DNA of 64,000 bases from an uncultured Gammaproteobacteria bacterium (GCA_964445435.1 CAYUKU010000005.1:6627-70626); one strand, 5' to 3'. Shown: positions 2,620-60,005, counted from the stretch's first letter. Notes: a model not told the origin generated them from the letters alone. A program made the numbers and translations.

Positions 2620-4011
2620 TTAGTTATAAATTACGACTCTCGTCCCGATATCCGCGAATTGGTAGACATATTTCGCGTCGCCCACGCCCAGCGCCACACA
2701 GCCTCCTGTGTTGGGTTGTCCGATGAAATTTGGCTTGCGATACTCCTGCCCGTTAATAAGTTTGTAGGGAGTTTCATGGATACCGAAATAGGCGTTCAAT
2801 TCCTCACTGTACTTAAATCCCATCCAGTACGGGAGCCACGACTTGTAGATGTTTGAGAATCCGAGCCCCGTTTTATTAAGAATTGTAAATTCACCCGTGG
2901 GTGTAGGATAGTCCAGACCTGTCGAGACGCGAAACGTTTTTATGAGCCTTCCGTCCTTGAAAAGGTACATTTTCTGCTGAGAGATATCGACCTCGATGTA
3001 TTTATCGGTTATCGATCCGGTTGTATTGGGCCCGGTATCGATGCTGATGGTGAGGGCGTCCACGGTATGTCCGTCATATCGGTTGGTAAGGACGGCCTGG
3101 AGATCCTCAATGACCTTCGGGGTGACGACGTTGCCCCGGATGATGAGTTTGAGCTTTTTGACTTTTTCGTTGACGGTTGTAGTCAAAGGCGCTTCTTTTA
3201 CCCCTATGGTGACGGATGTCTGGTCTTCCGACAGCTGAATATCAGTCATATCCGCAAGTTCCTTTTCGGTGAGGATAAACGCTTGTGACGTGCCTCCGGT
3301 GTCCACCAGAACGGTGAGCGGGGTGAGAAATACGTTTTTCATCCGATTACTCGTATCGGCGATCAATTTCGCTTTTTCGTTTTCGATTCTCGTGAGTTTG
3401 GGATAGAGGGGAGCGGTATTGTCCCCGATCCGTTGAGAAAGAAGCCGCATGAAGTACTCCTCATCGATCCGGTAGCGTTCTTCGTTTTCCACATAGACGA
3501 GTGACTTTTGCTGGTCATCGAAGTAGATTTCATCGGGAGCCTCGCTGAATTCAAAAACGGTCTGTTTGATATATTCACTGAATTCCTGGGTAAACGTGAG
3601 GGGAGCTTCTATCGTGGCGGGAATGAAAAACGACTTCACAAGGGTGTAGATATTGAAGGGGAGCGGCGCACGGTTCCGCGCAAATATCGCCTGCTTGATC
3701 CTTTCGTTATCCAAAACGACGCCCAGTTTGGAGTAGATGTACGTATACTCGCGGTCTCGCACCCGCACGCGGTACGGAAGAAGGGCAAACGAATCGATGA
3801 GATGGTCCACTTCGCTGACGCTTTTACCGGAGATGTCGATCGTGCCGAGCTTTGTATGAGGATACACCCACCAGGTCGCGTAAATTTGTGAGGCGGCGAG
3901 GAGATACAAAATAAATAAGGTAAACAGAAGAAGTTTTACGCGTTTACGAAGCATCCATACACGCTTAGCGTAGTAGGTTGCCCGATGAAGGTGGATCAGA
4001 TGTTTTCTCAT
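2620..4011 (-). CDS. L,D-transpeptidase (YkuD/ErfK domain) with N-terminal membrane anchor
   Basis: C-terminal HETPY...NTGGCVALG matches the YkuD catalytic His/Cys motif. An N-terminal TM segment is present. The start may instead be the internal Met at 3954. Confidence 0.75.
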   Translation of the reverse strand: MRKHLIHLHRATYYAKRVWMLRKRVKLLLFTLFILYLLAASQIYATWWVYPHTKLGTIDISGKSVSEVDHLIDSFALLPYRVRVRDREYTYIYSKLGVVLDNERIKQAIFARNRAPLPFNIYTLVKSFFIPATIEAPLTFTQEFSEYIKQTVFEFSEAPDEIYFDDQQKSLVYVENEERYRIDEEYFMRLLSQRIGDNTAPLYPKLTRIENEKAKLIADTSNRMKNVFLTPLTVLVDTGGTSQAFILTEKELADMTDIQLSEDQTSVTIGVKEAPLTTTVNEKVKKLKLIIRGNVVTPKVIEDLQAVLTNRYDGHTVDALTISIDTGPNTTGSITDKYIEVDISQQKMYLFKDGRLIKTFRVSTGLDYPTPTGEFTILNKTGLGFSNIYKSWLPYWMGFKYSEELNAYFGIHETPYKLINGQEYRKPNFIGQPNTGGCVALGVGDAKYVYQFADIGTRVVIYN

Positions 4012-4014
4012 TAT

Positions 4015-4159
4015 ACCGGGTTGTGAAATTTCGACTTTGCCTTAACGCTTTGCTCTCGAAAGTTCAGCTTCCTTTCTTTGGTATTTCCTCTTTCTCTCCA
4101 GATAGTCGCTCCACGCGCAGGCAAAGAGAGTACAAGCGTGTCGAAATTCTACTACCCGG
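4015..4159. repeat. Family A nested-palindromic intergenic element, copy A1 (145 bp)
   Basis: Terminal inverted repeats ACCGGGTTGTGAAATTTCGAC and GTCGAAATTCTACTACCCGG, plus an inner inverted pair CTTTGCCTTAACGC / GCGCAGGCAAAG. The left end abuts the L,D-transpeptidase start codon. Confidence 0.8.
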
Positions 4160-4248: not shown

Positions 4249-4818
4249 ATGATTCTCTCCGATCGGGATATCAAAAAGGCGCTTAGAAGCGGTCATATTC
4301 ACATTTCTCCGGCACCGAATTTCGCTTCACAACTCGGCAGCTGCATGATCGATCTTCAGCTGGGCAATACATTCCGCGTGTTTAACCACAGCAAGACGCC
4401 GTACCTCGATCCGCAGGACCCCAAGACGCTGAAGGCCGCAACTGCCGAAGTGGTCATGCGAAACGGTGAGCCATTCATTCTTCATCCGGGTGAATTTGTG
4501 CTGGCTATGACGCGCGAGTACGTCGAAATGCCCGACGACTTGACGGGCAGACTGGAAGGCAGATCCTCAATTGGGCGTATGGGCGTAGTGGTCCACTCGA
4601 CAGCAGCCAATATCGAGTGCGGATTTCGGGGAAACATTACGCTCGAGCTTGCCAATATGGGTCGGATTCCGGTAATGTTATATCCCGGTATGCGGATTTG
4701 TTCGCTGTCGTTTGAACAGCTCACGAGTCCCGCAGACGTGCCGTATTACAAGAAGAAGGGTGCCAAGTACGTAGGCCAGAAAAAACCTGAGGCGAGTAAA
4801 ATCGCGCAGGAAAAATAG
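4249..4818 (+). CDS. dcd: dCTP deaminase
   Basis: Full-length alignment by eye to Dcd: MILSDRDIKKAL..., GRSSIGRMG, PGMRICSLSFE. Confidence 0.9.
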   Translation: MILSDRDIKKALRSGHIHISPAPNFASQLGSCMIDLQLGNTFRVFNHSKTPYLDPQDPKTLKAATAEVVMRNGEPFILHPGEFVLAMTREYVEMPDDLTGRLEGRSSIGRMGVVVHSTAANIECGFRGNITLELANMGRIPVMLYPGMRICSLSFEQLTSPADVPYYKKKGAKYVGQKKPEASKIAQEK

Positions 4819-4821
4819 CAT

Positions 4822-6354
4822 ATGGAATGGCCGATTCTATACAAACAAGTACTTCAGGTGAAAGATCCTACCAATCCGGTGGGTGTTGCCATCATGTGGA
4901 CCGAGCGGCAGGTTGTCGCCAATTTACTCAAAAGCGAAAATTACTGTGCCATCGGCAATCTCTACTCATCCGCCGGAATTTCCGCCATGATTCGCAATGT
5001 ATACGCCAATCCCCATATCCGTAAGATTGTGCTGTGGGGAGCGGATCTCTCCCGAAGCGGCCAGGCGCTCATGGCCCTCATGCAAAACGGCGTGGATGAA
5101 AATTTCTTTATCATCGGCGATGAGAAGAAAGGACAGATCGAGAAGGAAATCGGCCGCGAGGCAGTCGAATTATTTAGGAAATCCGTCGAGGTGGTCAATC
5201 TGCGCGGCAAGCCCGTATCCGATCTACAGAAGACAGTCGGACAGTTAAGCCGGACGAAATTCGACCCGTTCACGGATCCCAGGACGTTTCCGACAAGCCG
5301 TCCCAAGCCATTCACGTTCCCAAGCGAGCAGATTGGAATTCGCGCCCACGGACAGACGGCTGCCCAGACATGGCTGAAGATTCTTCAGAATATCATGCGT
5401 TACGGGCGCAACAAGACGACCCGCTACACCCAGGAGAATGAACTGAAAGAGCTCCTCAACGTCATGGCAGTCGTGTACAACGAAGATCCGGACAAGCCCT
5501 ACTTGCCGCACTATTTTCCGTTTTCGGAGAAAGACCTCGTGACGTATTATCCCCAAGTGTTATCAGCGAAGCAGATTCCCGGCATAGCCTATACGTATGG
5601 TCAGAGATTGCGTGATCACGATGGTGTGGATCAAATCCAAAACATCATTGACCTTATAAAAAACAGGCCGTTTAGTAAGAAAATGGCTGCCTTCACCGCG
5701 AAGGTGAAAGAAGACTGGTCTGTCGTCAACAAAGGGGACACGCCCTGTCTCACGCAGGTTCTTTGCAGCATTCAGGACGGTAAGCTCTTCATGACGACCC
5801 ACTTCCGAAGCCAGGACATGGTACACGGCTGGCCCCGAAACGTGTTCTCGCTTCGCAAACTGCAGAAGTTCATTGCCGATGAATCAGGCTATCCCATGGG
5901 TGCGTTTGTCATGATTACCCACTCTGCGCATATTTACAGTGACGATTACGAGCTTGTTGAGAATATCCTGAAAGATAACTATGACAAAGAGCTTGGATAC
6001 ACGAGCCGTCAGATGTTTGAGGAAGACATGCGCGGCAATGTCGTCATTGAAATTGAAGAAGTTGCGAAAAACGGTGTTGGCAGGCCCACCAAATATGCTG
6101 AAAAACCGCCGGTGAAAAAAGATTTCGAGATCGTGGTAAAACTCTACGCCCCCAACGGCGGCTTACTTCTCAAAGAATGGCGTGGGAAGACTGCAATGGA
6201 ACTCTATATTGAGATGGTGAATATCGGTGACTATCTCGTACTACCAAGTCACCTTATCTATATAGGCACGGAACTCCAGAGGGCTGAATACGCCATCAAA
6301 ATGGGCAAGCCCGAGAAGTTTAGCCAGGACCCCGCAGCCAACAAGGAACTATAA
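4822..6354 (+). CDS. ThyA-fold (thymidylate synthase / dNMP hydroxymethylase-like) three-domain protein
   Basis: Central region carries ThyA motifs: a TPCL nucleophile Cys in place of PCH, the RSQD...N substrate-binding segment, and HIY. About 160 aa of unknown N-terminal domain and about 140 aa of extra C-terminal domain are added. Confidence 0.65.
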   Translation: MEWPILYKQVLQVKDPTNPVGVAIMWTERQVVANLLKSENYCAIGNLYSSAGISAMIRNVYANPHIRKIVLWGADLSRSGQALMALMQNGVDENFFIIGDEKKGQIEKEIGREAVELFRKSVEVVNLRGKPVSDLQKTVGQLSRTKFDPFTDPRTFPTSRPKPFTFPSEQIGIRAHGQTAAQTWLKILQNIMRYGRNKTTRYTQENELKELLNVMAVVYNEDPDKPYLPHYFPFSEKDLVTYYPQVLSAKQIPGIAYTYGQRLRDHDGVDQIQNIIDLIKNRPFSKKMAAFTAKVKEDWSVVNKGDTPCLTQVLCSIQDGKLFMTTHFRSQDMVHGWPRNVFSLRKLQKFIADESGYPMGAFVMITHSAHIYSDDYELVENILKDNYDKELGYTSRQMFEEDMRGNVVIEIEEVAKNGVGRPTKYAEKPPVKKDFEIVVKLYAPNGGLLLKEWRGKTAMELYIEMVNIGDYLVLPSHLIYIGTELQRAEYAIKMGKPEKFSQDPAANKEL

Positions 6355-12001: not shown

Positions 12002-12087
12002 GACCCCATCAAGCTTGACACCGCCTTCATCGTTGTCTACCATACTCTTGGAGGTACCGTAAAAGAGTGCGGAAATTGGAAATTTTT

Positions 12088-12245
12088 AAGCGTGTGGCCC
12101 GCCGGCGAGGCGGGATACGAGGGAAGGGCGTATCGAAATAATCTGCGGGTGCCCTTTGGTAGTTGCTCCCTACCACAACAGCGATTCGGAAACCTCCCGG
12201 TAACGGAAGAACAACGAAGCTGACGGAGTCCGCCTCTTATCATCG
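12088..12245 (+). ncRNA. glmS ribozyme-like 5' leader (glucosamine-6-phosphate-responsive self-cleaving riboswitch), putative
   Basis: A 230-nt leader sits between a TTGACA-17-TACCAT promoter (12015-12043) and the glmS ATG. It contains ACGAGG...ATCGAA...TCTGCGGGTGCCCTT, which parallels the B. subtilis core ACGAGG..UAUCGAAUU..UCGGCGGAUGCCUCC. It also has GGTAACGGAAG (compare GUAAGGA) and a GAAGGGC/GCCCTT stem. Confidence 0.45.
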
Positions 12246-12279
12246 AAAAATCGTTTTTTATTTTCCGAAGGAGTGTTCT

Positions 12280-14061
12280 ATGTGTGGAATTTTTGGCTAC
12301 GTGGGTCCGTCACCCAAGGCGACATCATTGGTTCTTAAAGGTCTTAAGGATCTTGAATATCGGGGGTATGACAGCTGGGGCATCGCCGCAGTTCCGGATA
12401 ATTCAAACGGGCACGGCAAGATCGTCGTGAAGAAAAAGACGGGGAAAATCGGCAACGCCACGCCGGAAGGGTTTCCCGCCAGCTCATTTGCCTTCGGGCA
12501 CACGAGATGGGCGACACATGGCGGTGTCACGGATATAAACGCGCATCCCCACCTGGACTGTACGGGGACTATTGCCATCATCCATAACGGCATTCTGGAA
12601 AACTATATGGAGATCAAGGAGAAACTTCTGAAGAAAGGTCACCGATTTATCTCCCAAACGGATACCGAAGTCGCGGTTCATCTCATCGAGGAATACGCCA
12701 AAACCATGCTTTTCAGCAAGGCGGTCCAGAAGGCATTCAATGAGATGACGGGTCTCAATGCATTCATTGCCATGAATACGAAGATTAAGCAGTTCGTCGC
12801 CGTGCGAAACGGCTCGCCATTAGTCGTCGGGTTCGGGAACAAGGAAAACTACCTGGCGTCAGACGCGGCCGCCCTTTTGCCGCATACCAAGCAGGTGCAT
12901 TTTCTTGAGGACGATGAGATGGCGATTGTTACACAAAAAGGCGCCATGATATTCAACGCGCGGACGGGAGCCCATGTCGCACCGCGTAAACAGCTTCTTA
13001 CCTGGTCCCTGGCGCAGGTGGAGAAAGGCAGTTATCCGTATTTCATGCTGAAAGAGATCCATGAACAGCCGGGAATTCTGGCGGATATCGCAGCAGATGG
13101 CGCCAACAGAGCGGTAGAATTGGCGAAGGTCGTGAAGAAAAGCCATGACGTTGCCATCATCGGTTGCGGGACGGCGAGCTACGCGAGTCTTGCCGGATCT
13201 ATCTTGTTTAACAAGATTGCCAAGCGGCCGGTCACGTGGGTGATCGGAAGCGAATTTGATGACGAGGTCCAGTTTTTGGGTCCGTCGAGTCTGGTTATAG
13301 CCCTGTCTCAGTCCGGAGAGACGATGGATACGCTTGAGGCAGTGCGCAAAGCCAAGAAGAAAAAGGCGAAGATTCTTTCCATCGTCAACGTCATGGGGTC
13401 GACCCTGTACCGCGAGAGTGATTATCAGCTTCTCATAGGTGCAGGTCCGGAGAAGGGTGTTGCTTCGACGAAGGCGTTTACCGGGAAAATCGCCCACACG
13501 CTTCTTCTGGCTTACGCGTCAGTCGGGAAGGTCGGGGATGGGCAAAAAATGCTGACCAAAGCAGCGCGTGTGGCCAAGGAAATACTGTCGGAGAAATCCG
13601 TTTCCCGGATTAAGACGCTTGCCAAGCGCATCGCCAAAAACGAACACGCCTATGTCATCGGCCGCGGCATGAGTTATCCAACCGCCCTCGAGACGGCGCT
13701 TAAGATCAAGGAGATCTCCTACATTCACGCGGAAGGGTTTGCCGCGGGGGAGCTCAAGCACGGAGTGATTGCGCTTATCGAAGAAGGAACGCCGTGCATC
13801 GCGTTTCTCCCCAACGACGAGACGTACGCAGCGAACCTGGCTGGCGCCATGGAGATGAAGGCGCGCGGCGGGTACATCATCGGGGTATCGCACAAACCCC
13901 ACGAGATATTTGATTACTACATTCCGGTGAAGGATGTGGGACCGGCAACGCTCATCCCCAACGTCATGGTTGCCCAGCTTTTGGCCTATTACCTGACGAT
14001 TGAGCGCGGGTTTGATCCCGACATGCCGCGCAATCTGGCCAAAAGCGTGACGGTAAAATAG
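12280..14061 (+). CDS. glmS: glutamine--fructose-6-phosphate aminotransferase
   Basis: Starts MCGIFGYVG (N-terminal Cys nucleophile) and ends with SIS domains. RBS AAGGAG is present. The ORF-track start at 12163 is too far upstream. Confidence 0.95.
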   Translation: MCGIFGYVGPSPKATSLVLKGLKDLEYRGYDSWGIAAVPDNSNGHGKIVVKKKTGKIGNATPEGFPASSFAFGHTRWATHGGVTDINAHPHLDCTGTIAIIHNGILENYMEIKEKLLKKGHRFISQTDTEVAVHLIEEYAKTMLFSKAVQKAFNEMTGLNAFIAMNTKIKQFVAVRNGSPLVVGFGNKENYLASDAAALLPHTKQVHFLEDDEMAIVTQKGAMIFNARTGAHVAPRKQLLTWSLAQVEKGSYPYFMLKEIHEQPGILADIAADGANRAVELAKVVKKSHDVAIIGCGTASYASLAGSILFNKIAKRPVTWVIGSEFDDEVQFLGPSSLVIALSQSGETMDTLEAVRKAKKKKAKILSIVNVMGSTLYRESDYQLLIGAGPEKGVASTKAFTGKIAHTLLLAYASVGKVGDGQKMLTKAARVAKEILSEKSVSRIKTLAKRIAKNEHAYVIGRGMSYPTALETALKIKEISYIHAEGFAAGELKHGVIALIEEGTPCIAFLPNDETYAANLAGAMEMKARGGYIIGVSHKPHEIFDYYIPVKDVGPATLIPNVMVAQLLAYYLTIERGFDPDMPRNLAKSVTVK

Positions 14062-14153: not shown

Positions 14154-14317
14154 AGCAGCGTAGCAAACAATTTTTTGCGACAACTGAGCGTTCGCATAAT
14201 GTCATGGAGTTTAATCGTGATATGCGAACGCTCACTTAGCGAACGACGGGAAGTACTCATCGATCAGTGATTATCATCAGGTGAGCAGGTCGCTGAAAAT
14301 TCGTTTGCGAAGCTGCT
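14154..14317. repeat. Family B nested-palindromic element, copy B1 (164 bp)
   Basis: Terminal inverted repeats AGCAGCGTAGCAAACAATTTT / AAAATTCGTTTGCGAAGCTGCT and inner stem GAGCGTTCGC / GCGAACGCTC. Lies between the convergent glmS and HD genes. Confidence 0.8.
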
Positions 14318-25170: not shown

Positions 25171-25334
25171 AGCAGCGCAGCAAACAATTTTCAAAGACAA
25201 CTGAGCGTTTGCGCTCGCAAAGTGAGGATTTCTTGAGTATGCAAACGCTCATTTAGCGAGCAATGGGTACGATTTCACGGTCAAAAATGTCATACGGTGA
25301 GCGGGTCTTTGGAAAATTTGTTTGCAAAGCTGCT
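25171..25334. repeat. Family B element, copy B2 (164 bp)
   Basis: Terminal inverted repeats AGCAGCGCAGCAAACAATTTT / AAAATTTGTTTGCAAAGCTGCT and inner stem GAGCGTTTGC / GCAAACGCTC. Lies between tsf and the frr promoter. Confidence 0.8.
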
Positions 25335-39670: not shown

Positions 39671-39775
39671 AGGCAGCGCGAGAAACCATTTTGAAGACAA
39701 CTGCGCGTTTGCTCGGATTATTGAAGTTTCGCTGAATATGCAAACGCGCATTTAGTGAACAATGGGGCTGCGCCT
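39671..39775. repeat. Family B element, copy B3 (truncated, about 105 bp)
   Basis: GGCAGCGCGAGAAACCATTTTGAAGACAACTGCGCGTTTGC...GCAAACGCGCATTTAGTGAACAATGGGG. The inner stem has compensatory GC-to-CG changes relative to B1 and B2. Confidence 0.7.
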
Positions 39776-43685: not shown

Positions 43686-43781
43686 AGCGGCGAAGTGACT
43701 CTATCAAAGACAACTGAGCGTTAACCCGACCTGGTAGTGAGTTTCCTGAATATGTGAATATTCATTGAGCGAACGATGGGA
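43686..43781. repeat. Family B element, copy B4 (degenerate, about 96 bp)
   Basis: AGCGGCGAAGTGACTCTATCAAAGACAACTGAGCGTT...ATTGAGCGAACGATGGG. The right end lies 8 nt before the ATG of the next gene. Confidence 0.6.
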
Positions 43782-46877: not shown

Positions 46878-47693
46878 ATGCGTAGCACTCCCGGTCTTAT
46901 AGTGCTATTTGGATCCGGCGAGATGTCTCCGACCGGTCGCAAGATTCACGAGGCGATCTTTCAAAGACTCGGATTTAAGCCACCGGTTCGTGTGGGAATC
47001 CTCGAGACGCCGACCGGGTTTGAGGTTAATGCGATTCACGGGTGGCCCGAGCGCATGGAAAAGTTTTTTGAGAAGAGTCTTCGTAATTTCAAGCCCGCGG
47101 TAACGCGCATCCGCGCCTGGAGACGGGACGGCCTTCACAGCACAAATGACGAGATGACGACCCAGCCGATTCTGTCTTCAGACTACCTGTACTGCGGCGC
47201 CGGATCACCGGGCTACACCATCAGACACCTCAGAGACACCAAGGCATATGAGAAGCTCAAACGTCTCCAGCGGCAAGGCGGTGTCCTGTGTCTGGGATCC
47301 GCAACAGCAGTTGCCATAAGCAGATTTGCCATACCGGTATATGAGATTTTCAAGGCCGGGGAAGACCTCCACTGGCTGGACGGTCTGGATATGCTTTCAG
47401 AATGGCTTCCCAATCTGGCAATCGTTCCGCACTGGAATAATAGAGAAGGAGAAGATTTCGATACGACGCGCTGCTGGATGGGGGAGGCGCGGTTCGACAA
47501 GCTCGTAAGCCTGCTGCCGCCCGAGGCAGGCATCCTGGGCATCGATGAGCAGACGGCATGCGTTCTTGACGTGACGGGAAAATCAGTAGAAGTAACGGGT
47601 ATAGGAAATGCGTACGTACTGCGTGCAGGAAAAAGGATTACATTCAAAAGCGGGAGCACGTTTCCGTTTTCTTTCCTTACTTCACCGGGGTGA
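46878..47693 (+). CDS. peptidase S51 / type-1 glutamine-amidotransferase-like protein (cyanophycinase- or PepE-like)
   Basis: LIVLFGSGEM N-terminus and GGVLCLGSATA. Confidence 0.55.
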   Translation: MRSTPGLIVLFGSGEMSPTGRKIHEAIFQRLGFKPPVRVGILETPTGFEVNAIHGWPERMEKFFEKSLRNFKPAVTRIRAWRRDGLHSTNDEMTTQPILSSDYLYCGAGSPGYTIRHLRDTKAYEKLKRLQRQGGVLCLGSATAVAISRFAIPVYEIFKAGEDLHWLDGLDMLSEWLPNLAIVPHWNNREGEDFDTTRCWMGEARFDKLVSLLPPEAGILGIDEQTACVLDVTGKSVEVTGIGNAYVLRAGKRITFKSGSTFPFSFLTSPG

Positions 47694-48060
47694 TGGCAAG
47701 CGCAGTCACGGAATGACTGGAGATAAGAAACGTCTTGGAGTCGATATTGACTTTCACCATTTGTCCCGGGGTGACGGAAGCCATATTGAAGGCAGCGGGA
47801 ACAGTCACGGTCCACCTCCCCAAATCTTGGGGGCTTCCTTCGCGGTTTTCATCCGAGAGAAACACGCGATCAAGCGTGAGTGTTCCGTCTGCTTCGTTGA
47901 CGGCGCTGACGGTGCCATTGAGTTCAAGCGTTTTGACGACGGCCGCGCGGGCCCGGACGTCCGTTGATGAAGAGGAGGATGTTCGCGAGAGAAGTGAGAC
48001 CATCGCGATAGCAAGGATGATGAGAAGGACGCTTCCCAGAAGAAGGACGTTTTTGCTCAT
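47677..48060 (-). CDS. membrane-anchored secreted protein, function unknown
   Basis: Starts MSKNVLLLGSVLLIILAIAMVSL (signal anchor). The ORF-track extension to 48174 runs into repeat A2. Confidence 0.5.
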   Translation of the reverse strand: MSKNVLLLGSVLLIILAIAMVSLLSRTSSSSSTDVRARAAVVKTLELNGTVSAVNEADGTLTLDRVFLSDENREGSPQDLGRWTVTVPAAFNMASVTPGQMVKVNIDSKTFLISSHSVTALAITPVK

Positions 48061-48206
48061 ACCGGGTTGTGAAATTTTGACCTTTGCCTTAACGCGTTTG
48101 TTCTGAACATGCAGCTTCCTTTCCTGTCGAATGAACTTTTTTCCTGACCAGAGAGTCTCTCCACGCGCAGGCAAAGAACAAAGCGCGTGTCGAAATTCTA
48201 CTTAGC
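48061..48206. repeat. Family A element, copy A2 (about 146 bp)
   Basis: ACCGGGTTGTGAAATTTTGAC...CTTTGCCTTAACGC...GCGCAGGCAAAG...GTGTCGAAATTCTACT. About 80% identical to A1. The left end abuts the start codon of 47677-48060. Confidence 0.8.
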
Positions 48207-48254
48207 ATATCTACATTGTTCCATTCCCATAACACCATGTCAAGCTGTTTCAGG

Positions 48255-48283
48255 TTGTCCGACGTACTTGTATACGATACAAT
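48255..48283 (+). promoter_or_regulatory. promoter TTGTCC-17-TACAAT, leaderless start at 48290
   Basis: The -10 box ends 6 nt before the ATG. Confidence 0.5.
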
Positions 48284-48289
48284 CAGTAA

Positions 48290-49474
48290 ATGAAGTCGCT
48301 TACTGCCAACAGGAATCTTCTTATCATTGCCCTTATCGCCATCGTCAATGCGTTGGGGTACGGCATTATCATTCCTGTTTTATACTCGTATTCGCAGCGG
48401 TTCGGGCTTTCCGATTTTCAGAACGGACTTCTGTTTTCCACGTTTTCGCTTTTTCAATTTTTCTCAACGCCGGTTATCGGGAGGCTCTCTGATATGTACG
48501 GCAGGAAGCCGCTTCTGGTTCTGTCCATTCTCGGTACGGCGGTGTCTTTTTTCCTTATGGCGTTTGCGCCGTCTTCCATATTCCTTTTCCTTGCCCGCGC
48601 GCTTGACGGAATTACGGCCGGCAACATTCCCGTTGCGTCTGCCGTTATCTCAGATACCACCGAACCGAAAGACAGGGCAAAGGGATTTGGGATCATCGGC
48701 GCCTCATTCGGATTCGGATTTGTCTTCGGTCCTGCCATCTCAGCACTCACCCTGGGCTTGGGAGCCAATGTGCCGTTTATTATCGCGGGTCTTGTGGCCC
48801 TGATTGCCGCAGGTGTGACGGCCGCAGCACTTCCTGAGACAAACAAGCACATAGGCCTGGTGAAACACGAGAAACTCTTCGATCTGTCGCATCTTGTTTC
48901 GGCGCTCTTCGATAAAAACATCGGGACGACGCTTCTTGTTTCATTCATATACACGATGGCGTTTGGGTTGGTCATATACGCCTATCAACCTCTTGCCGTA
49001 CGGGTTCTCGGGATGAGCCCCGCCCAGGTATCATTGAACTTCACACTCATCGGTATTGTTGGGCTTCTCTCTCAAGTTCTTATTATCCCGAGGGTTGTTC
49101 GCAGATTCGGAGATACCGGCACGCTTTCGAAGGCTCTTATCCTTGAGACCCTCGTCCTTCTGGGATTTTTCTTTACCCGGTCGATCGGCGTCATGATGGT
49201 GGTGACGGTTTTCCACGCGCTTGCCAATGCGTTTGTCAACCCGCTGATCGGGGCGCTTTTATCCAAAGAAGTCGATGAACACTCTCAGGGCGCCATTCAG
49301 GGGGTGAATGCGGCGTACATGAGCATCGGACTTATCCTGGGGCCTATTGTTGGAGGAACGCTTGCGTCACTTCTGGTGCCGCTTCCGTTTCTGGCAGGAA
49401 GTATCGGTGTATTTGGCTGTGTCTGGCTTGCCCTCCAGATTCAAAAACGTGTCCACGTGCGGGCGACGCTTTAA
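48290..49474 (+). CDS. MFS transporter
   Basis: 12-TM pattern and an MFS motif A-like GRLSDMYGRK. Confidence 0.85.
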   Translation: MKSLTANRNLLIIALIAIVNALGYGIIIPVLYSYSQRFGLSDFQNGLLFSTFSLFQFFSTPVIGRLSDMYGRKPLLVLSILGTAVSFFLMAFAPSSIFLFLARALDGITAGNIPVASAVISDTTEPKDRAKGFGIIGASFGFGFVFGPAISALTLGLGANVPFIIAGLVALIAAGVTAAALPETNKHIGLVKHEKLFDLSHLVSALFDKNIGTTLLVSFIYTMAFGLVIYAYQPLAVRVLGMSPAQVSLNFTLIGIVGLLSQVLIIPRVVRRFGDTGTLSKALILETLVLLGFFFTRSIGVMMVVTVFHALANAFVNPLIGALLSKEVDEHSQGAIQGVNAAYMSIGLILGPIVGGTLASLLVPLPFLAGSIGVFGCVWLALQIQKRVHVRATL

Positions 49475-57695: not shown

Positions 57696-58540
57696 ATTGG
57701 CTCTCGTACTCGGTTATCGCACTGGTAACTTTCAGCGGATACGACCTTCTGAGCCGCAGACTCGGTGTCGAAAGCAAGAACCCGCGCGCATTCGGGGCAG
57801 TCTATTATTTCGTCGCGGCGTTCCTTTGTCCGCTTCTGCTTTTTGCAGAACCGCTCGTAACACCTTCACTTTCCGGAGTCACGCTTGTTTTGACAGCATT
57901 AGGACTTTTTGCGTGGATACTGTTTGGCCGAATCGAGTATATGACGCACAAATACGTCGAGGCATCGACGTTAACCATCCTTCTTCGGCTCGGGCCGATT
58001 ATCACATTCGCATTGTCAGCACTTTTTTTAGCGGAAGCGGTGACTGTGCCGAAGCTTATCGGCCTTCTTCTTACGGTTTTCGCGAGCATTCTCGTTATCG
58101 GCGTCCCCTCGGTTTCTTTGTTTAGGAAAAATAAGGACTTGCGGTATGGCGTACTTCTGGCGGGTATTTTGGGTGTCGCGTGGACATTCGACAAGGTGCT
58201 TTCTCCGATTTACGGTGTTGTTGTGTTTGGCTTCCTCACGTTTTTCGTGCCGGCACTCGCCAATACATTCGTGCCGCCGCTTCCTCTGGCTGCGATGCGC
58301 AGTGAACTGCAGCATGCCTCGTGGAAGTTAATTGTCTTGGGACTTCTCAATATCATCGGGTACGGCGCCATGACGAAAGCACTCATTATAGGAGACGCCA
58401 CAAACGTCATACCAATCGCAACCTCCACGCCGCCGCTGGTTGTCTTGGGAGGCGTCTTGTTTCTGGGCGAGCGAACAGACGTGGGGAAGAAAATACTTGC
58501 GGTACTTCTCGTTCTTGTTGCTATCTACCTGATGCGTTAA
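57692..58540 (+). CDS. EamA/DMT-family transporter
   Basis: 10-TM pattern with two EamA-like halves. Start overlaps the upstream stop (ATGA). Confidence 0.7.
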   Translation: MNWLSYSVIALVTFSGYDLLSRRLGVESKNPRAFGAVYYFVAAFLCPLLLFAEPLVTPSLSGVTLVLTALGLFAWILFGRIEYMTHKYVEASTLTILLRLGPIITFALSALFLAEAVTVPKLIGLLLTVFASILVIGVPSVSLFRKNKDLRYGVLLAGILGVAWTFDKVLSPIYGVVVFGFLTFFVPALANTFVPPLPLAAMRSELQHASWKLIVLGLLNIIGYGAMTKALIIGDATNVIPIATSTPPLVVLGGVLFLGERTDVGKKILAVLLVLVAIYLMR

Positions 58541-59213
58541 AGAGTCGTGAGGCTTCCATCACGTACCGCAGAAATACCGTAGCAGACAGCATTTCCAACC
58601 CTTCTTCTATGCCAACCATCAGAACGTAAATCGGGTGGCCGTAGGTTGCTCCACCAACGATTTCAAATACGAGTATGGCGCCGTACATGAGAAGCCCCGT
58701 CCAGAGAAGCTGTTGCCGTTGCCGATGTGTTTCCCGTCGGGCAATCGCCGCGAACGACATGAAGACGAAGATGATAAAGACAAGTAACGGAAATATCCAG
58801 GAGAAATAAACAAAAGATCCGAGGAATGATTGTGCGGAAACGAGCCCCTTGAGCGTGGTGCTTACATATTCGTGAATTTCGAAGTATTCGTCGAGTGACA
58901 GCATGAGGAAAAAGGAGGCCATCCCGGCGTATGAAAGAATGGTACCGATCCTTTTTTGGGCGCCGAGGGTAAGAAAACCGATGACTGCAGCCAGAAGATA
59001 TACACCGGAGGTGAACCACGCGGCCAGAGTGACTTTCTCATCCATGTAAAAGATGCTGGTATCCATGCCCAGGATTCGGTAGGGATGAAACAGGAAATGA
59101 AGAAGCGTAATGCCGAGGCTAACGGCGAAGAGTCCGCGGAATGCTCGGGTCGGAATATCCATCTGTAATGTAGTATACACTGATTGGAACACCTCCTGTA
59201 TAATGAAGTTCAT
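58521..59213 (-). CDS. integral membrane protein, function unknown
   Basis: 230 aa with 6 predicted TM helices. Its start codon abuts repeat A3. Confidence 0.5.
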   Translation of the reverse strand: MNFIIQEVFQSVYTTLQMDIPTRAFRGLFAVSLGITLLHFLFHPYRILGMDTSIFYMDEKVTLAAWFTSGVYLLAAVIGFLTLGAQKRIGTILSYAGMASFFLMLSLDEYFEIHEYVSTTLKGLVSAQSFLGSFVYFSWIFPLLVFIIFVFMSFAAIARRETHRQRQQLLWTGLLMYGAILVFEIVGGATYGHPIYVLMVGIEEGLEMLSATVFLRYVMEASRLFNASGR

Positions 59214-59357
59214 GCCGGGTTGTAGAATTTCGACACGGCTTTCTCTTGTTTGCCCGTATATCTACGTGACTCGCCATATGACAATCGGTATCTATAACGA
59301 AAGGAGTCTGGAATTTCGAAAGCCGTAAAGGCAAACGTCGAAATTTCACTACCCGGC
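59214..59357. repeat. Family A element, copy A3 (144 bp), flanked on both sides by divergent start codons
   Basis: cat|GCCGGGTTGTAGAATTTCGAC...GGAATTTCGAAAG...GTCGAAATTTCACTACCCGGC|atg. The terminal inverted repeats are perfect apart from 2 mismatches. A central TTTCGAAA palindrome is present. Confidence 0.85.
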
Positions 59358-60005
59358 ATGTTTCGTATAGAAAAGACAGACCTTCTCGTCTCCGTCTATA
59401 TCTTCTGCATTCTGGTCAGCGAACTTATGGGGGGCAAGACATTTCCTGTTTTGACGTGGCCCGTCAGGCTCAATGCATCGGTAGCTATTTTCGTTCTTCC
59501 CCTCGTCTATTCCATAAACGATATCGTAATTGAGGTTCTGGGAATTGAGCGTGCCAGAAGTATCGTCAGAAGCGGACTTATAACTGTTGCACTCGTATTG
59601 GGCTTTTCACTTCTTGCCACAAGTTTGCCGCCTTCGGGCAGATTTGCGGCAACCGAATCTGCGTACGATACCATTTTCGGATTGTCAGCGCGGATTGCAG
59701 CGGCCTCTCTCACTGCATTTTTGCTTGCTGAGTTTACCGATTTACTCGTGTTCCAGAAAATCCGTGCCCGACTGGGGAAGAAATCCCTCTGGCTCAGAAG
59801 TAACGCGTCCAATATCGTTTCACACTTCCTGGATACGGTTATCTTTATAACGCTTGCGTTTTACGGGGTCAACCGTCCGTTTGCCGATAACATTTCGTTT
59901 CTCTGGAGTCTCATTTTGCCGTACTGGCTTCTTAAGTGCAGCATGTCTGTTGTTACCACTCCGCTTGTGTATGCGGGAGTCAGGTGGCTGAAAGGAAAAC
60001 AATGA
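59358..60005 (+). CDS. VUT-family transporter (YhhQ-like queuosine-precursor transporter, DUF165)
   Basis: Aligns along its length with E. coli YhhQ, for example SHFLDTVIFITLAFYG compared with SDTLAFFFIAFW. Confidence 0.7.
   Translation: MFRIEKTDLLVSVYIFCILVSELMGGKTFPVLTWPVRLNASVAIFVLPLVYSINDIVIEVLGIERARSIVRSGLITVALVLGFSLLATSLPPSGRFAATESAYDTIFGLSARIAAASLTAFLLAEFTDLLVFQKIRARLGKKSLWLRSNASNIVSHFLDTVIFITLAFYGVNRPFADNISFLWSLILPYWLLKCSMSVVTTPLVYAGVRWLKGKQ

Follow-up and report, generated by a model that had tools for sequence, protein, structure and literature searches.

Why a repeated element should end exactly at the start codon of a gene, and how such a gene could still be translated, is the question raised by positions 48,061 to 48,206 of a 64,000-nucleotide stretch deposited as DNA of an uncultured Gammaproteobacteria bacterium (GCA_964445435.1 CAYUKU010000005.1:6627-70626), the whole of which is called the window below. 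This locus holds A2, one of three window copies of a short element (family A), directly 5' of a gene for a 127-aa protein. On the basis of empty sites in relatives, family-wide placement and covarying base pairs, the element is likely a non-autonomous transposon, that is, a MITE (miniature inverted-repeat transposable element), that inserts at start codons and would be transcribed as a structured 5' leader keeping translation of the gene working. Our confidence is high for the insertion and the MITE assignment and moderate for the RNA-level role that we infer.

Copy A2 and the gene it precedes

The locus contains the following features, in window coordinates.

47677..48060, minus strand: gene for the 127-aa protein, with an N-terminal transmembrane (TM) helix, a Ser-rich linker and a small beta-barrel
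48058..48061, minus strand: proximal TATG of the duplicated target, made of T48061 and ATG 48060-48058, the start codon of the 127-aa gene
48062..48205, minus strand: copy A2, 144 nt, decayed, with the minus strand as gene sense; profile score 84 bits in gene sense and 11-13 antisense
48062..48081, minus strand: gene-proximal arm P of A2, in gene sense GUCAAAAUUUCACAACCCGG, intact save one G-to-A change (GTCAAAA)
48189..48205, minus strand: gene-distal arm D of A2, degenerate by sequence comparison (CUAAGUAGAAUUUCGAC vs CCGGGUAGUAGAAUUUCGAC)
48206..48209, minus strand: distal TATG of the duplicated target, the gene-start position in element-free relatives
48215..48243, minus strand: resident promoter TTGACA-17(TG)-AACAAT, kept in five loci of relatives (L106-L110), where it stands directly before the gene
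48255..48283, plus strand: promoter-like TTGTCC-17-TACAAT, 6 nt before ATG 48290 of the divergent major facilitator superfamily (MFS) transporter gene 48290-49474

The first-pass annotation had placed A2 directly 5' of the 127-aa gene with the ATG adjoining the repeat, and the minus strand indeed reads ...GGTCAAAATTTCACAACCCGGT and then directly ATG. It had also judged the N-terminus of the open reading frame (ORF) at 47677-48060 on the minus strand (MSKNVLLLGSVLLIILAIAMVSL) convincing, which is borne out by 15 homologues of 52-100% identity, whose conserved N-terminus, M-(S/N/K)-K-N-V-L-L-L-G-S, begins at the position of the window ATG. Three homologues have longer gene models, and the added upstream parts are unconserved. 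On these comparisons, the gene is real and conserved and starts at ATG 48060. The 127-aa protein matched no Pfam family. Its AlphaFold model, with a mean predicted local distance difference test score (pLDDT) of 78, places residues 3-24 in a helix and residues 44-126 in a small beta-barrel, with a disordered, Ser-rich segment (28-41) between the two, and gave weak structural matches only (OB-fold/CusF/YobA-like, E about 1e-3). A fair reading of the model is a membrane-anchored extracytoplasmic protein, with a cleavable signal peptide as the alternative. The modelled helix fits the earlier label of signal-anchor protein, which is reasonable but provisional.

The origin of the arrangement can be read from relatives. 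Homologue contigs share the gene order of the window (MFS transporter, small protein, 268-274-aa protein, cysS), with a short spacer between the MFS gene and the small gene. This spacer reads CTTGACA-17-AACAAT-GTGGCT-ATGAATAAGAAT in L106-L108, where the protein is 88% identical, and CTTGACA-17-AACAAT-gaggcta-ATGTTTAAAAAT in L109 and L110; in the window it reads CTTGACA-17-AACAAT-GTAGAT-ATG, followed by CTAAGTAGAATTTCGAC...CACAACCCGG-T-ATGAGCAAAAAC. When aligned at the distal TATG, a relative shows AACAATGTGGCTATGAATAAG and the window AACAATGTAGATATG, then CTAAG.... In all five loci, the promoter thus lies 6/7 nt from the ATG, which is a leaderless arrangement, whereas the window has about 148 nt inserted at the ATG with (T)ATG on both sides. 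A profile search of the five syntenic loci found no element copy anywhere in them. Because these relatives have the same promoter fused to the gene without the element, A2 is an insertion at the start codon that duplicated (T)ATG.

As read from these alignments, the insertion split a leaderless promoter from its gene, leaving the promoter and one ATG at the far end of the element and the other ATG at the head of the coding sequence, and it would have given a formerly leaderless gene a leader of 148 nt. The adjacency noted earlier was therefore correct but missed that the ATG is one half of a target-site duplication whose second (T)ATG lies at 48206-48209. Likewise, the far end had rightly been called degenerate, but the gene's own promoter at 48243-48215, just beyond it, was overlooked. 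This promoter ends 6 nt before the distal ATG 48208-48206, a leaderless-type layout, and is now aimed into the element. The separate leaderless-type MFS promoter that had been placed about 50 nt beyond A2 is present as described (TTGTCC-17-TACAAT, 6 nt before the ATG).

A2 itself has decayed. Its far end reads GTCGAAATTCTACTTAG followed by CATA where copy A1 has GTCGAAATTCTACTACCCGG, with about 3 nt gone and further changes; the internal arm copy is degenerate and the proximal arm carries a mismatch, and the two inner helices described below (helices 2 and 3) and a GAAAGGA motif are retained. The predicted fold of A2 is no better than shuffles (z = +0.5 for the element; z = +1.1, or +1.07, for the whole leader), whereas those of A1 and A3 beat them (z = -3.5 and z = -3.2). 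A2 is probably a copy that can no longer move, and its gene would now carry an essentially unstructured 148-nt leader.

The family, its flanks and its host genes

The family was collected with the pattern GTGAAATTTYGAC-N90-120-GTCGAAATTC from one genome per species, which gave at least 105 loci; the family-wide counts below refer to the 105 matches listed. Named hosts are Gottesmanbacteria, Microgenomates, Parcubacteria, Moranbacteria/Moraniibacteriota, Saccharibacteria and 'Patescibacteria group' metagenome-assembled genomes (MAGs), and some third-party bins labelled Gammaproteobacteria or Bdellovibrionales contain the same element. A match in a Chamaesiphon cyanobacterium (L100) proved unrelated. 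Among the matches listed, several genomes have six to ten or more copies. From sequence comparison, this family is spread across lineages of the Candidate Phyla Radiation (CPR); its copies are placed at start codons with a duplicated ATG and one fixed orientation, and share a conserved leader that is probably pseudoknotted. In the window, a profile made from related copies detects three and no more, and the 21-nt terminal motif occurs there three times against 0.00 expected. Besides A2, these are:

4016..4159, minus strand: copy A1, with ATA/ATA flanks, before the YkuD (L,D-transpeptidase) gene 2620-4011, whose ATG lies 4 nt past the element end
59215..59356, plus strand: copy A3, with CATG/CATG flanks, whose proximal ATG 59358 starts the Vut_1/YhhQ-type transporter gene 59358-60005

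The distal end of A3 has the layout TATAAT-GAAGTTC-ATG. Its CATG target is palindromic, and the distal copy (59211-59214) is also an ATG on the other strand, where it opens a 230-aa membrane-protein ORF (58521-59213, minus strand); an alternative start of this ORF (MDIPTRAF) lies 17 codons downstream, 9 nt after TATACT.

The elements are 130-147 nt long and have the ends CC.GGTAGTGAAATTTCGAC ... GTCGAAATTCTACTACC.GG. Their terminal inverted repeats are 20-nt arms forming 19 pairs, which are 97% paired across 74 copies. Direct flanking repeats of at least 3 nt occur in 93 of the 105 copies, with the lengths divided as follows.

Flanking repeat of 4 nt: 43 copies
Flanking repeat of 5 nt: 24 copies
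Flanking repeat of 3 nt: 15 copies
Flanking repeat of 6 nt or more: 11 copies
Flanking repeat under 3 nt: 12 copies

The commonest flanks are CATA...CATA, or TATG...TATG in the opposite orientation, TATG being the favored target. Other sequences found on both sides include TCAA, TCCA, GCTTCA, CTTTGC, GTATAG, CATG, AATG and CTTCA, and since differing sequences are duplicated in this way, the flanks represent a target-site duplication and no fixed part of the element.

The same flanks bear on the possibility that a single-strand (HUH/Y1) transposase of IS200/IS605 or RAYT type mobilises the element, which would then insert 3' of TATG and mimic a duplication with its own 3'-end tetranucleotide. 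The arms do hold GTAG, the tag of RAYT-mobilised repetitive extragenic palindromic (REP) sequences (PMC3733652), the interior is conserved in structure and not in sequence, and the flank tetranucleotide is strongly specific, with strict orientation and with TCAA recurring in a short sister family. The fixed TATG would also fit a palindrome-associated element of the IS200/IS605 type, a kind that enters 3' of a constant tetranucleotide without true duplication and has subterminal hairpins in place of terminal inverted repeats. However, variant flanks change together on both sides (CATG/CATG in A3 and L041, AATG/AATG in L047, and TCCA, GCTTCA and GTATAG), which makes HUH mobilisation less likely; moreover, the arms are not self-palindromes as REPs are, long terminal inverted repeats typical of DDE elements are present, and REPs lie mostly downstream of genes. 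We therefore regard such a mechanism as unlikely.

An outward ATG opening an ORF of at least 60 codons lies no more than 4 nt from one end in 97 of the 105 copies (92%), while 124 of 3000 random placements in the same DNA (4.1%) do so. An origin of the ATG adjacency by chance or by an ORF-calling artefact would have in its favor only that CAT is a common trinucleotide; the conserved N-terminus of the 127-aa protein, the excess over random placement and the empty sites in L106-L110 leave it next to no probability, and this reading is already refuted. The earlier statement that the placement is no ORF-calling artefact accordingly stands on both the homologue N-termini and the family counts.

Orientation relative to the gene is fixed in both of two element classes. 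Class 1 comprises 79 copies of the Microgenomates type, including those of the window, with the GTAGAAT arm distal and the GTGAAAT arm beside the gene. In the 16 copies of class 2 (H41-bin156, Moranbacteria and others), the arm types are swapped and the interior is different. Both classes carry an internal third arm copy that is the exact complement of the gene-proximal arm, the distal arm being an imperfect partner. Because this layout is alike in both classes, it is fixed relative to the gene and does not reflect a transposon landing either way round.

The TATG is conserved in 93-97% of copies at the proximal side and in 58-75% at the distal side. A -10-like TANNNT lies 5-11 nt upstream of the distal ATG in 48 of 95 copies, where the background is about 2 per position, and in some copies, such as AAGGAG-N9-ATG at rpsS of L054, the distal ATG is preceded by a Shine-Dalgarno (SD) sequence with the usual spacing. 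These SD-led distal ATGs indicate that the target is start codons generally and not just leaderless ones. By a crude gene call, TATG/CATA occurs at about 64 places in the non-coding DNA of the window, compared with 23 gene starts of the form T-ATG; an element that uses TATG and is purged from coding DNA would thus hit starts about one time in four, and the 92% seen calls for start targeting or strong differential survival. A crude gene call also puts TANNNT 5-9 nt ahead of the start codon in 22 of 64 genes (leaderless-type), and an SD (AAGGAGG) in 10 of the 64.

The host genes share no function. They include groEL, hrcA, trx, ssb, ftsZ, murA and rnc, seven ribosomal-protein genes and many aminoacyl-tRNA synthetase genes, and the same gene is occupied in different species for groEL (L039/L097), trx (L008/L044), rplK (L071/L072), ssb (L086/L096) and ybaB (L024/L089/L090). 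In several old copies (groEL, ybaB, trx and the membrane-protein gene of L046), an SD of the form AAGGAG or AGGGAG abuts the stem and the distal ATG is gone. A preference for membrane or secreted proteins, suggested by three of three genes in the window, was dropped because an N-terminal TM segment in 33 of 94 family genes is unremarkable. Compensatory evolution in situ was considered for the ybaB copies, where the helix-2 extension differs by two compensatory pairs between L024/L090 and L089; since the whole interior also differs, replacement by another subfamily is possible and in-situ evolution is not claimed.

It could be supposed that the element is a mobile promoter, acting outward or internally, that gives a leaderless transcript from the proximal ATG. 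Correia elements can create promoters at their ends (PMC2649163), and the distal arm contains TAGAAT. However, TAGAAT points toward the gene in class 1 and away from it in class 2, and the proximal ATG has no TANNNT 5-9 nt upstream, where the invariant TTTCACTACCTGGT stands instead. A promoter scan found none inside A1-A3, and the element holds fewer promoter-like pairs (2/79 in gene sense) than its shuffled versions do (6/79); an internal candidate that seemed plausible by eye, a -35 formed by helix-3 TTGCCn with an AT-rich centre, was rejected on this count, sigma-70-type pairs occurring in only those 2 of 79. We consider a mobile promoter very improbable. An element without a promoter would have to be transcribed from the resident promoter as a leader, and the essential, highly expressed genes downstream suggest that this leader permits efficient initiation.

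The interior of the element

Structure was analyzed on 74 class-1 copies aligned in gene sense. The corresponding features of A2 are:

48117..48123, minus strand: conserved unpaired GAAAGGA (SD-like), at least 90% conserved in the 74 copies
48170..48176, minus strand: 5' strand of helix 3, CUUUGCC, pairing with GGCAAAG 48082-48088; 6/7 pairs compensatory
48184..48188, minus strand: 5' strand of helix 2, ACGCG, pairing with CGCGU 48092-48096 and crossing helix 3; 5/5 pairs compensatory

Three helices are supported. The arm-arm stem of 19 pairs is stacked with helix 3 (CUUUGCC with GGCAAAG), and helix 2 (ACGCU with AGCGU) crosses helix 3 to give a pseudoknot with an A-rich linker. Pairing is found in 96.2% of cells against 89.4% in shuffles, 16 pairs have changed on both sides, and there are 142 double-change cells against 34.6 in shuffles; none of 500 shuffles reaches the observed covariation, which extends to 5/5 pairs of helix 2 and 6/7 of helix 3. 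When the partners are slid by 1-3 columns, pairing falls to 27-43%. RNAalifold independently recovers the arm stem and helix 3, and in class 2, an outer stem and a local hairpin both covary.

In an alternative fold, two hairpins form: the outer distal arm pairs with the internal ACUACCUGG, and the proximal arm with the internal copy of the arm. Pairing reaches 87%, and the changes are mostly one-sided, to G.U; in the gene-sense strand, G.U accounts for about 160 cells and A.C for about 62. This G.U excess, together with profile scores of 84-102 bits in gene sense and 13-23 antisense, points to pairing in the gene-sense transcript. The GAAAGGA motif is unpaired in both folds and matches the AAGGAGG of SD-led genes in the window. 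The motif stands 3 nt upstream of the internal hairpin, with a further 9 nt from that hairpin to the AUG.

Two conserved pairing schemes that exclude one another, with an internal arm copy complementary to the proximal arm in both classes, would suit a domesticated cis-regulatory RNA switch that responds to temperature, a ligand or upstream ORF translation, the stem and the two hairpins being its off and on states and the host genes a post-transcriptional regulon. The pseudoknot with its A-rich linker, the conserved GAAAGGA and the presence of groEL and hrcA among the hosts would also agree with a switch. However, the host genes have no shared function, the interiors of the two classes are entirely different, and the two-hairpin fold covaries weakly, being reached by 6/500 and 8/500 shuffles. 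An Rfam 15 search gave no match at gathering thresholds, and with E up to 10 it gave one chance-level match on A1 and none on A3. A dedicated switch thus appears improbable. The Rfam result also removed a ribozyme from consideration, hammerhead- or HDV-like cores not being seen by eye, and an integron attC site was discarded because the ends CC.GGTAG ... CTACC.GG lack the R''/R' core sites RYYYAAC ... GTTRRRY. The ORF from the distal ATG runs for 3-50 codons without a conserved frame or stop position, so that the element has no conserved coding capacity; a conserved leader peptide was rejected on this ground, its recurring start MPGSRIST being the arm itself.

In the reading that we prefer, a MITE acting as a structured leader, the resident promoter would transcribe the element as a leader of about 145 nt. 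The leader RNA would form the long two-arm stem topped by the pseudoknot, or alternatively the two hairpins with GAAAGGA one hairpin from the AUG, and these pairings would be kept by selection since they keep the downstream gene translatable. Three routes, which need not exclude each other, could serve this end. The closed arm stem may act as a bypass that places the new AUG beside an upstream initiation signal (5' end or SD); the element's own GAAAGGA may act across the local hairpin; or RNase III may cut the stem, as reported for Correia elements (PMC2649163, PMC10969869). The distal-ATG ORF runs through the distal arm in every copy; more speculatively, its translation might disrupt the long stem and so favor the two-hairpin fold. 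A stronger version, a transposable, start-codon-specific translation-initiation module with its own SD, switchable hairpins and a pseudoknot that would relay initiation from the old signal (5' end or SD, together with the distal AUG) to the real AUG or replace it there, is possible but doubtful. Were such a module real, a single mobile element of post-transcriptional control would serve dozens of genes in each CPR genome, essential ones among them, and would turn genes without a leader into leadered ones.

Several points weigh against this leader reading. Duplications differ in length (3 to 5 nt) and 12 of the 105 copies lack one, and because the scan pattern requires both arms and the count of at least 105 is a lower bound, arm invariance and the census are both biased. 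Neither a transposase nor a full-length element bearing these ends turned up in flanking CPR DNA totalling about 840 kb. With a hairpin in between, GAAAGGA would be 12 nt from the AUG, a rather long spacing for an SD, and relay through the distal-ATG ORF is not obviously constrained given its variable length and frame. The leader, its fold and any effect on translation are predicted. Finally, the covariation of the long stem and pseudoknot is strand-neutral, with C.A, for example, occurring 12 times at pair 46/141, so that a DNA hairpin in transposition may explain the pairing instead of RNA.

This last point is shared with a purely selfish MITE without any RNA role, in which the pairings serve as a hairpin or cruciform for transposition and the start-codon sites come from a preference for TATG and from survivorship. 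Where genomes are compact and prone to deletion, an insertion between promoter and ATG could not be lost without killing the gene, and copies at orthologous genes of different species (groEL, trx, ssb and ybaB) suggest long retention. The gene behind A2 has been kept although the copy has decayed, and T-ATG starts already make up about one quarter of the non-coding TATG sites in the window. On the other hand, insertions before groEL, ribosomal-protein, aminoacyl-tRNA synthetase and ftsZ genes must permit strong expression, the conserved unpaired GAAAGGA is unexplained by a DNA hairpin, and the gene-sense G.U excess points to RNA. Orientation is moreover fixed in both classes despite the swapped arm types, and in several old copies an SD (AAGGAG) has come to lie right beside the stem. 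A purely selfish element is possible but on balance less likely.

Relation to known elements and other features of the window

Terminal inverted repeats, a target-site duplication, and a small size without a transposase gene or conserved ORF are all present, copies are dispersed, and the A2 site, occupied in the window, has no insertion in L106-L110. The element thus fits the general definition of a MITE save for a cognate transposase, and its closest kinds are Correia, ERIC, YPAL and bcr1. In the search for an autonomous partner, the only distant arm pair within the 105 loci (L048 4843/5922, 1.1 kb apart) encloses an ordinary gene of about 243 aa, so that this candidate was set aside; it revealed a shorter sister family of about 70-95 nt with a single hairpin and related arms, CCCTGTAGTGAATTTTCGGCC / GCCGAAAATCTACTACGGGG. 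Copies of this sister family lie at L048 4839-4939, L066 ~5236-5310 and L010 5880-5950, with a solo arm at L048 ~5912-5945, and the copies read have TCAA flanks.

Correia elements (CREE/NEMIS) of Neisseria are MITEs of about 100-155 bp with long terminal inverted repeats, many of them near genes, whose co-transcribed hairpins can be cut or bound by RNase III with changes in adjacent gene expression and for which no cognate transposase is known (PMC2649163, PMC10969869). They duplicate TA, can create promoters at their ends and contain an IHF site, whereas the present element duplicates TATG-type 3-5-mers and has no promoter. It further differs in its start-codon site, fixed orientation, covarying pseudoknot and SD-like motif, and is unrelated in sequence and host phylum. 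Membership in the Correia family was rejected on the TATG-type duplication, arms that differ from the Correia 26-bp repeat, and CPR hosts that are not Neisseria.

ERIC/IRU, YPAL and bcr1 are small elements with terminal inverted repeats in transcribed regions, in which the RNA fold is conserved over sequence and orientation affects the fate of the mRNA. They lie mostly 3' of genes, between cistrons or at variable distance, and to our knowledge none has been reported on start codons or duplicating ATG. Their hosts are enterobacteria, Yersinia and the Bacillus cereus group, respectively, and the present element is set apart from them by its position on the start codon and its duplication of ATG. 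ERIC is treated in PMC10969869.

REPs are self-palindromes of 20-40 bp with GTAG near their ends, found mostly downstream of genes and without flanking duplications (PMC3733652). The present element resembles REPs and REPINs in its GTAG near the outer ends, in two inverted units 20-100 bp apart that fold into one long hairpin, in its abundance, and in a plausible action as RNA (PMC3733652). It differs in its non-self-palindromic arms, its duplications and its start-codon location, and was not assigned to REP/REPIN because the arm GTGAAATTTCGAC is unable to make a hairpin by itself, the flanks are duplicated and start codons are the site of 92% of copies.

Genes 38 and 25 of phage T4 have split ribosome-binding sites, in which a stable hairpin between the initiation signal and the AUG brings both close together. 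The analogy is functional only: in L039, L090 and L097, AAGGAG abuts the stem, and a single hairpin separates GAAAGGA from the AUG downstream of it. Unlike the element, the hairpins of T4 are short, fixed and immobile. IStrons are self-splicing insertion sequences that splice themselves out. Rickettsia palindromic elements, in turn, lie in-frame in genes and are translated (PMC10969869). With these self-neutralising insertions, the element shares the idea of persistence at a sensitive site through a product that leaves gene function intact, but it lies outside the coding sequence and gives no sign of splicing.

The literature searched holds no description of the family; coverage was incomplete and an earlier description is possible. 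A 2024 review of prokaryotic MITEs makes no mention of start codons or Patescibacteria. MITEs near genes are known; a start-codon-sited, ATG-duplicating and orientation-fixed family that is tolerated before groEL, ribosomal-protein, aminoacyl-tRNA synthetase and ftsZ genes is undescribed in the literature searched. The family bears on translation initiation in CPR bacteria, which have reduced ribosomes and, in the window, many leaderless-type genes, and it offers natural paired experiments, since one gene can be compared between a form that has the predicted structured leader of 145 nt and a form that lacks it. In annotation, the motif is useful as a marker of true start codons, and it accounts for 'orphan' promoters that lie about 150 nt upstream of genes in CPR MAGs. 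Copies are also found at contig ends (L050 8-134, L056 8-134, L089 1-128 and L036 12-126), which suggests that the repeat breaks MAG assemblies and is a likely cause of such contig ends.

The window also contains a second, unrelated repeat family of about 100 nt, GCAGCG.AGCAAACAATTTT..GACAACTGAGCGTTTGC...TGAATATGCAAACGCTCATTTAGCGAACAATGGG, with the internal inverted repeat GAGCGTTTGC/GCAAACGCTC and no match in Rfam. Its four copies (14154-14250, 25171-25267, ~39680-39766 and ~43690-43780) all lie just downstream of co-directional genes. A glmS ribozyme at 12078-12232 on the plus strand (52.4 bits; gathering score 37) precedes a glmS-like ORF at 12163-14061. A 50-nt direct repeat (405-454 and 513-562, 98% identical and 108 nt apart) lies beside or overlaps two minus-strand tRNA genes (519-590 and 732-803). 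The cumulative GC skew rises almost monotonically across the window, and a 510-aa ORF (4822-6354, plus strand) starts 4 nt after the stop of the dCTP deaminase gene 4249-4818.

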